Shown: piece by piece, positions 15,001-18,000 of the stretch
How positions within the stretch are numbered: position 1 is the stretch's first letter
Layout: every line of letters begins with the position of its first letter
Assembly: GCF_988242995.1 (NCBI RefSeq)
Contig: NZ_OZ547044.1
DNA: 64,000 nucleotides
From: a plasmid
Strand: one strand, 5' to 3'
Program-made: the position numbers

Positions 15001-18000
15001 GCCGTGCCGGAGCCATCCGGCACTTTCTGGCGATGGGCCAGCATCCACTGATGCAGCGCATCGGCAAGGGGTTTGGCTTTGGTTTGCCGGATTTCCCGCC
15101 GCATATCCGGTGGCAGATCTTTGGTTTCCCGCTCGATCTCGTAGAGTCCACCGATGTATTCCAAGGCCTTGGCCGCCAATTCGCTCTTGTTGGCCTCGTG
15201 CAGGTCATAGAACTTGCGCCGGGCGTGGGCCATACAGCCGATTTCGGTAATGCCGTTGCCGAACCCGGCCTTGTAGCCAGCGTAATCATCACAGACCAGC
15301 TTGCCCCGCCAGTCACCCAGGAAGGTTCGGGCGTGTTCGCCTGCACGGCTGGGTGCGAAGTCGTAAATAGCTGCCTTCAGGTCGGCAAACGGTGTGGTGC
15401 AGTAGGCCCAGACGTAGGCCTTGTGGGTTTTCTTCTTGCCCGGGGCCAGCATGCTGACCGGGGTTTCATCGGCATGCAGAACACTGTGTTCCAGCAGAGT
15501 ATTTCTCAACGCATCCACCAGCGGCTGCAACTGCACACCACAGGCACCCACCCATTCGGCCAGGGTGGAGCGCGGGATTTCCAGGCCGGCACGGCCGAAC
15601 ATGCGTTCCTGACGGTACAGCGGCAGATGGTCGGCATACTTGGCCACCAGCACCTGGGCCAGCAGGCCAGCGGTGGGGATGCCTTTGTCGATCACCTGCG
15701 GTGGCACCGGTGCCTGGATCAACGTCTCGCAGCTGTCGCAGGCCCATTTGCCCCGGATGTGACGTTCAACGGTGGGCACTGTTGCAAAGTTAGCGATGAG
15801 GCAGCCTTTTGTCTTATTCAAAGGCCTTACATTTCAAAAACTCTGCTTACCAGGCGCATTTCGCCCAGGGGATCACCATAATAAAATGCTGAGGCCTGGC
15901 CTTTGCGTAGTGCACGCATCACCTCAATACCTTTGATGGTGGCGTAAGCCGTCTTCATGGATTTAAATCCCAGCGTGGCGCCGATTATCCGTTTCAGTTT
16001 GCCATGATCGCATTCAATCACGTTGTTCCGGTACTTAATCTGTCGGTGTTTAACGTCAGACGGGCACCGGCCTTCGCGTTTGAGCAGAGCAAGCGCGCGA
16101 CCATAGGCGGGCGCTTTATCCGTGTTGATGAATCGCGGGATCTGCCACTTCTTCACGTTGTTGAGGATTTTACCCAGAAACCGGTATGCAGCTTTGCTGT
16201 TACGACGGGAGGAGAGATAAAAATCGACAGTGCGGCCCCGGCTGTCGACGGCCCGGTACAGATACGCCCAGCGGCCATTGACCTTCACGTAGGTTTCATC
16301 CATGTGCCACGGGCAAAGATCGGAAGGGTTACGCCAGTACCAGCGCAGCCGTTTTTCCATTTCAGGCGCATAACGCTGAACCCAGCGGTAAATCGTGGAG
16401 TGATCGACATTCACTCCGCGTTCAGCCAGCATCTCCTGCAGCTCACGGTAACTGATGCCGTATTTGCAGTACCAGCGTACGGCCCACAGAATGATGTCAC
16501 GCTGAAAATGCCGGCCTTTGAATGGGTTCATGTGCAGCTCCATCAGCAAAAGGGGATGATAAGTTTATCACCACCGACTATTTGCAACAGTGCCCCCGGA
16601 GCTGGATAAGCAACGAACGTCCTGGCCTGCTTTTCGATCTGGCGACAGGGTGGCTTATGCAACATCGTATTATTCTCCCCGGAGCCACTACGCTGACCCG
16701 GTTGATTTCAGAGGTAAGGGAAAAGGCGACGTTGCGCCTGTGGAACAAACTGGCACTGATACCGTCAGCCGAACAGCGTTCACAGCTGGAGATGCTGCTG
16801 GGGCCAACTGATTGCAGCCGCCTGTCTTTACTGGAATCACTGAAAAAGGGCCCTGTGACCATCAGTGGTCCGGCGTTTAATGAAGCAATTGAACGCTGGA
16901 AAACTCTGAACGATTTTGGCCTGCATGCTGAAAACCTGAGTACACTCCCGGCTGTGCGCCTGAAAAATCTCGCACGTTATGCTGGTATGACTTCGGTGTT
17001 CAATATTGCCAGGATGTCACCGCAGAAAAGGATGGCGGTTCTGGTTGCCTTTGTCCTTGCATGGGAAACGCTGGCGCTGGATGATGCATTGGACGTTCTG
17101 GACGCCATGCTGGCCGTTATCATCCGTGACGCCAGAAAGATTGGGCAGAAAAAACGGCTCCGCTCGCTGAAGGATCTGGATAAATCTGCATTGGCGCTCG
17201 CCAGCGCATGTTCGTACCTGCTGAAAGAAGAAACACCGGACGAATCGATTCGTGCTGAGGTGTTCAGCTACATCCCAAGGCAAAAGCTGGCTGAAATCAT
17301 CACGCTTGTCCGTGAAATTGCCCGGCCCTCAGACGATAATTTTCATGAAGAAATGGTGGAGCAGTACGGGCGCGTTCGTCGTTTCCTGCCCCATCTGCTG
17401 AATACCGTTAAATTTTCATCCGCACCTGCCGGGGTTACCACTCTGAATGCCTGTGACTACCTCAGCCGGGAGTTCAGCTCACGGCGGCAGTTTTTTGACG
17501 ACGCACCAACGGAAATTATCAGTCGGTCATGGAAACGGCTGGTGATTAACAAGGAAAAACATATCACCCGCAGGGGATACACGCTCTGCTTTCTCAGTAA
17601 ACTGCAGGATAGTCTGAGGCGGAGGGATGTCTACGTTACCGGCAGTAACCGGTGGGGAGATCCTCGTGCAAGATTACTACAGGGTGCTGACTGGCAGGCA
17701 AACCGGATTAAGGTTTATCGTTCTTTGGGGCACCCGACAGACCCGCAGGAAGCAATAAAATCTCTGGGTCATCAGCTTGATAGTCGTTACAGACAGGTTG
17801 CTGCACGTCTTTGCGAAAATGAGGCTGTCGAACTCGATGTTTCTGGCCCGAAGCCCCGGTTGACAATTTCTCCCCTCGCCAGTCTTGATGAGCCGGACAG
17901 TCTGAAACGACTGAGCAAAATGATCAGTGATCTACTCCCTCCGGTGGATTTAACGGAGTTGCTGCTCGAAATTAACGCCCATACCGGATTTGCTGATGAG

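Follow-up and report, generated by a model that had tools for sequence, protein, structure and literature searches.

Harmer, Pong and Hall are said to have defined, in 2021, minor variants of the insertion sequence IS26 by specific differences of one to three bases, and ISfinder reportedly does the same. The IS26 transposase, Tnp26, has the DDE residues D78, D138 and E173 (PMC8477213). Its named variant IS26-v1 (IS26*) carries the Tnp26 substitution G184N and shows enhanced activity, according to PMC8477213 and PMC12540391, which relate the work of Pong et al. 2019; variants v1 to v4 are named in PMC12540391. In plasmids of Klebsiella, Escherichia and Salmonella, IS26 and IS26-v1 together account for 92% of family members; IS26-v1 was counted at 1,385 versus 6,266 copies, and the remaining members are described, in a statement that is unverified, as having "few substitutions" (bioRxiv 10.1101/2024.02.20.581145). 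Intramolecular replicative transposition in trans is recognized by inverted IS26 copies with matched 8-bp pairs (He et al. 2015, PMC4471558), and a scheme of this reaction has been published (PMC7986276).

We analyzed a stretch of 64,000 nucleotides (the window) from contig NZ_OZ547044.1 of assembly GCF_988242995.1. This DNA belongs to an IncF plasmid of the Klebsiella type, with traI/traX/finO and an IncFII repA, and contains seven complete 820-bp copies of IS26 (c1 to c7). A resistance region of ∼50 kb lies between c1 and c7. Its first part holds IS66-like, thermonuclease, cupin and chlorite-dismutase genes, followed by c2 and a Tn3-family tnpA fragment; further on are aac(3)-II, a catB fragment, blaOXA-1 and aac(6')-Ib, then tetR/tet(A), qnrB and two Tn3-family tnpA copies, and a blaKPC module with IS1182-, IS21- and Tn3-family transposase genes. 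The IS26 features of the window are as follows.

10365-11184, plus strand: IS26 copy 1 (c1), C61T allele with T at window position 10425; protein wild type.
11185-11447, minus strand: partial eighth IS26, found by BLAST; IS positions 1-263 reverse-complemented, C at position 61, abutting the IRR of c1.
15775-16594, minus strand: IS26 copy 2 (c2), E161K allele; 819 of 820 bases identical to copies 3, 4 and 6.
15827-16531, minus strand: tnp26 ORF of c2, 705 nt, 234 aa; D78, D138 and E173 intact, K at 161.
16051, minus strand: variant base of c2, IS position 544 G>A (T on the plus strand), codon 161 GAA>AAA.
18656-19475, plus strand: IS26 copy 3 (c3), the allele common to copies 3, 4 and 6, used as reference.
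22076-22895, plus strand: IS26 copy 4 (c4), reference allele.
25082-25901, minus strand: IS26 copy 5 (c5), silent C741T at window position 25161.
39382-40201, minus strand: IS26 copy 6 (c6), reference allele.
61000-61819, minus strand: IS26 copy 7 (c7), C61T allele at window position 61759; sister of c1.

When c1 to c7 were compared column by column, ungapped and in IS orientation, only three columns were variable, at IS positions 61, 544 and 741. The preliminary description of this DNA had claimed that one copy encodes a Tnp26 with Glu replaced by Lys, and the comparison bore this out: A is present at position 544 in c2 only, and translation gave DVKHRQIK in this copy versus DVEHRQIK in the others, that is, E161K. 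The coordinates given there, 15827-16531, are exactly those of the c2 tnp26 ORF on the minus strand. The silent difference that it reported in copy 5 was likewise found; c5 alone has T for C at position 741, with codon R226 changed from CGC to CGT (ACCAGACGCATTT versus ACCAGGCGCATTT on the plus strand). At position 61, which lies three bases 5' of the ATG, T is present in c1 and c7 and C in the other five copies. This column had been overlooked, as had the partial IS26 next to c1 and the unequal value of the markers.

Compared with the IS26 reference (WP_001067855.1), c2 is identical at 819 of 820 nucleotides and 233 of 234 amino acids, the single differing base being 544 G>A. Like IS26, it is 820 bp long, has perfect 14-bp terminal inverted repeats (GGCACTGTTGCAAA), both of them intact, and encodes in a single 705-bp tnp26 a 234-aa DDE transposase with D78, D138 and E173; its identity to IS26 falls within the rule for isoforms (PMC6807381). 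We also compared c2 with the variants described before. G184, in the motif RIIGATL, is retained in all seven window copies, which rules out c2 as IS26-v1, and the E161K protein already has a RefSeq accession of its own, WP_004186977.1.

A single base within a repeat that assemblers handle poorly might reflect faulty sequencing or assembly, or a mutation that occurs in this record only. We searched with 55-base queries that had the variant base at the center and arms of 27 bases on each side; the megablast seed was 28 bases, and therefore matches could seed on the variant base only. The E161K query matched 150 PLSDB plasmids, 147 of them at ≥99% identity, and among the matches listed 40 of 40 were at 100%. 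The matches fell in 143 Klebsiella, 5 Escherichia and 2 Morganella plasmids, 137 of the 150 being conjugative, and nearly all were Klebsiella IncFIB/IncFII plasmids. Exact hits were also obtained in 3 of 5,426 complete E. coli genomes, plasmid-borne each time. In a collection of 15 billion proteins, the exact 234-aa E161K protein was found on 584 contigs and the wild type on at least 1,000. Both proteins occur in the same plasmids (NZ_CP083037.1 and NZ_CP032173.1), WP_004186977.1 beside the wild-type WP_001067855.1. An error or private mutation is almost certainly not the explanation, because the same base recurs in independent assemblies (147 PLSDB plasmids of many hosts and countries, and 584 contigs), with a protein accession of its own and with the same flanks. 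These results demonstrated that E161K is a real, inherited allele that has not freshly arisen, and that the variant is not new, since it is already catalogued under WP_004186977.1. In the searchable full-text literature, we found no mention of "E161K" together with IS26 or of WP_004186977. One E. coli plasmid, NZ_CP100928.1, with G544A and C379A in a copy beside mph(A), was set aside as evidence; its assembly is full of frameshifts.

The other two variable columns differ in what they can tell. The C61T allele is commoner than E161K, with 1,158 places in 606 PLSDB plasmids, and both are thus established alleles, as they recur in the databases. The C741T change of c5 had no exact match among the 72,556 PLSDB plasmids; it is therefore private to this record, as a new mutation or an error, and we rejected it as a tracing marker. 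The earlier suggestion that such markers can help trace the order of IS26 events was thus upheld for E161K and C61T, once these were compared with relatives, and failed for the silent change of c5. C61T, which is common to the outermost copies c1 and c7, is the most informative marker for the window.

We compared the 14 octamers flanking the seven window copies, directly and as reverse complements, and found no match among them. Because no window copy keeps a matched 8-bp pair, the window by itself does not reveal in which order the events took place. We then turned to sister plasmids for the history of c1 and c7, to which the following feature belongs.

60992-60999: GAAAAAAT, surviving half of the 8-bp target duplication common to c1 and c7.

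In OW848888.1 and CP024516.1, ATTTTTTC closes the flank at the IRL of the c1 equivalent; in OW848888.1 and in the window, it opens the flank at the IRR of c7. In the window, 53 bp beside the IRL of c1 have since been deleted, and with them the c1 half of the duplication; the same deletion removed the last nine codons and the stop of repA, so that LELALAPPS* became RHCCK*. Because c1 and c7 are inverted, both carry C61T, and have the target duplication in sister plasmids, they are sister copies of one copy-in inversion, which gave the whole resistance region its present orientation. The partial IS26 at 11185-11447 has been cut by c1. A complete E161K copy in NZ_CP032173.1 has an identical IRL junction, which suggests an older IS26-bounded unit, one with no supporting target duplication, that was later cut by c1.

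Of the 7.5 kb that surround c2, ≥80% is present in 175 plasmids at ∼100% identity, and both c2 flanks are identical in independent genomes (loci L004, L005 and L009). The exact 820-bp E161K allele was recovered in loci L002-L011, L012, L013, L015 and L016. The recurrence of the flanks and of the 7.5-kb surroundings indicates that the allele is inherited in place. It is fixed at one junction of a multiresistance region in Klebsiella IncFIB/IncFII plasmids, with the IS66-like/cupin/chlorite-dismutase segment on one side and the Tn3-family tnpA fragment on the other.

About 14 of the 150 variant-bearing plasmids have two matching places. Three plasmids with two E161K copies were examined, and two of them retain target duplications, whose undisturbed targets are present in the window.

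4232-4239: CTATGCCG, in traX; intact in the window, duplicated by the E161K IS26 in OW848888.1.
14370-14377: AGTGGAAG, in a chlorite-dismutase-family gene; intact in the window, duplicated by the E161K IS26 in CP024516.1.

In OW848888.1 (K. pneumoniae, Barcelona), two exact E161K copies are in inverted orientation; CTATGCCG ends the traX flank at the IRL of one copy and starts the flank at the IRR of the other, and the 11.5 kb between the copies is the reverse complement of window positions 4232-15774. In CP024516.1 (K. pneumoniae KSB1_10J, Australia), two E161K copies are again inverted, with the matched octamer AGTGGAAG, and window positions 14370-15774 are inverted between them. The matched octamers and inverted segments of these two plasmids indicate that the E161K element has been duplicated at least two times independently, and homologous recombination was not the source of these duplications, because it is unable to create target duplications. 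The allele thus remains mobile as an element, with at least two events of intramolecular replicative transposition to be read from these footprints. In the third plasmid, NZ_CP032173.1, two E161K copies in direct orientation surround the thermonuclease-cupin-chlorite dismutase segment, and octamers matched in none of their combinations; this pair hints at the older IS26-bounded unit and does not prove an event. In other genomes, the exact variant has at least six different combinations of flanks, chromosomal sites included. Copies with one new flank (L002, L003/L007, L006, L008 and L010/L011) were not counted as proof of activity, since homologous recombination between IS26 copies fits them equally well.

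We next considered the residue itself, which lies 12 residues before the catalytic E173. An exhaustive HMMER search returned 30,862 relatives, and 55 IS6-family representatives with 40-70% identity that cover the catalytic domain were aligned. Column 161 is variable (N13, R8, E7, S6, Q4, K4, V3, A2 among the 55 homologues), with K or R in 12 of the 55, and the five closest non-IS26 relatives that cover the position have Arg. Nearby, R163, K166, Y167, N169, N170, E173, D175, H176 and K180 are conserved in this alignment, in which D78 and E173 are invariant and D138 nearly so. An AlphaFold2 model of the E161K protein (mean pLDDT 91) places residue 161 after the loop 153-160, at the start of strand 161-164; to judge by its position, this strand is probably the final one of the RNase H-like core. 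The helix 170-184 carries E173. A sequence search for solved structures returned no IS6-family transposase and only weak matches to retroviral integrases, and with the model as query the nearest folds found by Foldseek were the ISCth4 transposase and retroviral integrases. Because column 161 is variable and the model places the residue at the start of a strand, E161K would be tolerated; as relatives, moreover, often have Lys or Arg there, the substitution is quite probably near-neutral.

Taken together, these data suggest that c2 works like any IS26. Its DDE transposase would act on the 14-bp terminal repeats, and the element would move by replicative "copy-in" transposition with an 8-bp target duplication; copy-in is seen here as sequence footprints only, and the formation of cointegrates by c2 is a prediction. 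We infer that the E161K protein itself, and not neighboring wild-type Tnp26, probably catalyzed both events, and that its activity may be about that of the wild type. Alternatively, E161K might cripple Tnp26, so that c2 is a passive, decaying copy moved by wild-type Tnp26 in trans or by RecA-dependent recombination. The substitution is, after all, a charge reversal in the catalytic domain close to E173, and every variant-bearing plasmid has several wild-type IS26 copies with ends identical to those of the variant. Inactivating either tnp26 cuts the targeted reaction 30-fold without abolishing it, so some trans or partner activity persists when one gene is lost (PMC4196232). Such a copy would move rarely, as would fit an allele that is hardly seen outside a single plasmid lineage and a single junction; in the window itself, c2 has no target duplication, and new flanks on one side can be explained by homologous recombination between IS26 copies. 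However, position 161 is unconserved and naturally basic in some homologues, and two independent copy-in events duplicated precisely the E161K copy, each with an 8-bp target duplication; the direct pair in NZ_CP032173.1 adds a further plasmid with two variant copies. Tnp26 is moreover reported to be cis-preferring or cis-only (PMC4196232, PMC7885326, PMC7986276), being expected in one account to prefer binding in cis (PMC7885326) and in another to act in cis exclusively (PMC7986276). We therefore consider a crippled transposase unlikely.

The opposite effect, a gain of function like that of G184N in which, for example, a positive charge near the DNA raises copy-in or targeted activity, is very unlikely. 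It would agree with an acid-to-base change in the catalytic domain, with a family that often has R or K at column 161 and also at column 184 (44 of the 55 homologues), and with the enhanced activity of G184N, which is likewise near the E173 helix (PMC8477213, PMC12540391). The plasmids with two matching places, and the fresh copy-in inversions in two of the three examined, point the same way. Yet E161K is nearly limited to one Klebsiella plasmid lineage, usually with one copy per plasmid, whereas IS26-v1 is abundant and found in several genera. More broadly, E161K might be non-neutral: it could make copy-in more active, as a second natural hyperactive allele besides G184N, or it could make the variant cooperate less well with wild-type Tnp26 in the targeted conservative reaction, which was recovered only if both IS make the same transposase (PMC7885326). 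We regard this as distinctly unlikely; if true, it would set c2 functionally apart from its six neighbors and bias the rearrangement of a widespread Klebsiella resistance region. The near-neutral reading remains the one that we prefer, and the E161K IS26 is biologically ordinary, neither a new kind of element nor a new mechanism.

The value of the allele lies in plasmid epidemiology and in the reconstruction of rearrangements. E161K is a cheap and stable one-base marker for one junction of a resistance region in Klebsiella IncFIB/IncFII plasmids, and in this plasmid the region so marked also contains blaKPC, blaOXA-1, aac(6')-Ib, aac(3)-II, tet(A) and qnrB. With E161K and C61T together, the parental IS26 copy of a given rearrangement can be identified, which is impossible when the copies are identical. 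The two inversions marked by target duplications are natural evidence that Lys161 is compatible with IS26 movement, and they add one more data point to the very small set of characterized Tnp26 substitutions.

Among the described systems, IS26-v1 differs from the E161K allele in the residue concerned (184) and in being far more abundant and crossing genera, whereas E161K is essentially a marker of Klebsiella IncF plasmids. IS26-v2 to v4, IS15DI, IS15DII and IS15DIV lie 1-3 bases from IS26 according to PMC6807381 and PMC12540391, and E161K and C61T resemble them in this count of bases. The depositor of CP024516.1 used the label "IS15DIV" for copies that encode wild-type Tnp26 and no more than "IS6 family transposase" for those with E161K. 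OW848888.1 and CP024516.1 show the 8-bp target duplication of IS26 at the identical E161K allele, and no copy in the window is flanked by one. In the Klebsiella plasmid inversions of He et al. 2015 (PMC4471558), two inverted IS26 copies have matched 8-bp flanks, and the segment that they enclose is inverted; the E161K copies show the same arrangement, and so do the C61T copies around the whole resistance region. Unlike those cases, however, a SNP within the element here independently identifies the parent copy.

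The IS26 differences listed in the preliminary description, a Glu to Lys change in the transposase of copy 2 and a silent change in copy 5, proved incomplete, having overlooked a C>T change that copies 1 and 7 carry at IS position 61 (window 10425 and 61759, respectively). This third polymorphism is located 3 bases upstream of the tnp26 ATG, with GGAG on one side and the start codon on the other. Within the window, T at this position is found only in copies 1 and 7, which form the outermost pair and are mutually inverted; the same allele is present in 606 PLSDB plasmids.

In the sister plasmids OW848888.1 and CP024516.1, copies 1 and 7 have a common 8-bp target duplication, ATTTTTTC (IS orientation), of which the window keeps only the copy 7 half. 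The 8 bp are located as follows:
Window 60992-60999, copy 7 half
OW848888.1 13566-13573
CP024516.1 13506-13513
This common duplication indicates that copies 1 and 7 are sister IS26 copies produced by a single replicative inversion, with the ~50-kb resistance region enclosed entirely between them.

Two features adjoin copy 1:
10340-10381, junction of copy 1 with the 3' end of IncFII repA
11185-11447, eighth IS26, partial, reverse complement of IS positions 1-263
Compared with CP024516.1 and OW848888.1, the window lacks the 53 bp adjoining the copy 1 IRL, and its RepA is without the final nine residues and stop (LELALAPPS*), the frame running on into IS26 (RHCCK*). The partial IS26 abuts the copy 1 IRR directly, and its IRL junction is that of a complete E161K copy (Glu161 to Lys, IS position G544A) in NZ_CP032173.1.

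Two further direct repeats adjoin IS26 copies:
32603-35542 and 40202-43141, 2,940-bp repeat of a Tn3-family tnpA, with 2 mismatches between its copies
25899-26408 and 31371-31880, 510-bp repeat of a Tn3-family fragment
The start of one 2,940-bp copy coincides exactly with the IRL of copy 6, and the 510-bp repeat begins at the IRL of copy 5; both repeats are probably traces of earlier IS26 events.

G544A was also found together with C379A in an IS26 copy of the E. coli ET729 plasmid NZ_CP100928.1 (record coordinates 25699-26518; protein WP_156664158.1), in an assembly in which many genes are frameshifted. Its occurrence there could reflect independent recurrence, recombination or sequencing error. 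This IS26 adjoins mph(A). Tnp26 of all window copies carries Arg168 (KYRNN; copy 2 codon at window 16028-16030), 5 residues ahead of the catalytic E173, and this column is occupied by Leu (KYLNN) in each of the 55 IS6-family homologues aligned. Arg168 is a peculiarity of IS26 itself, unconnected with E161K.

The IS26-bounded region contains a KPC carbapenemase gene, within the segment 44000-55000:
48876-49760, minus strand, blaKPC
One flank of this gene holds an IS1182-family transposase gene, and the opposite flank holds transposase genes of the IS21 (istA/istB) and Tn3 families. These surroundings are Tn4401-like in gene arrangement.
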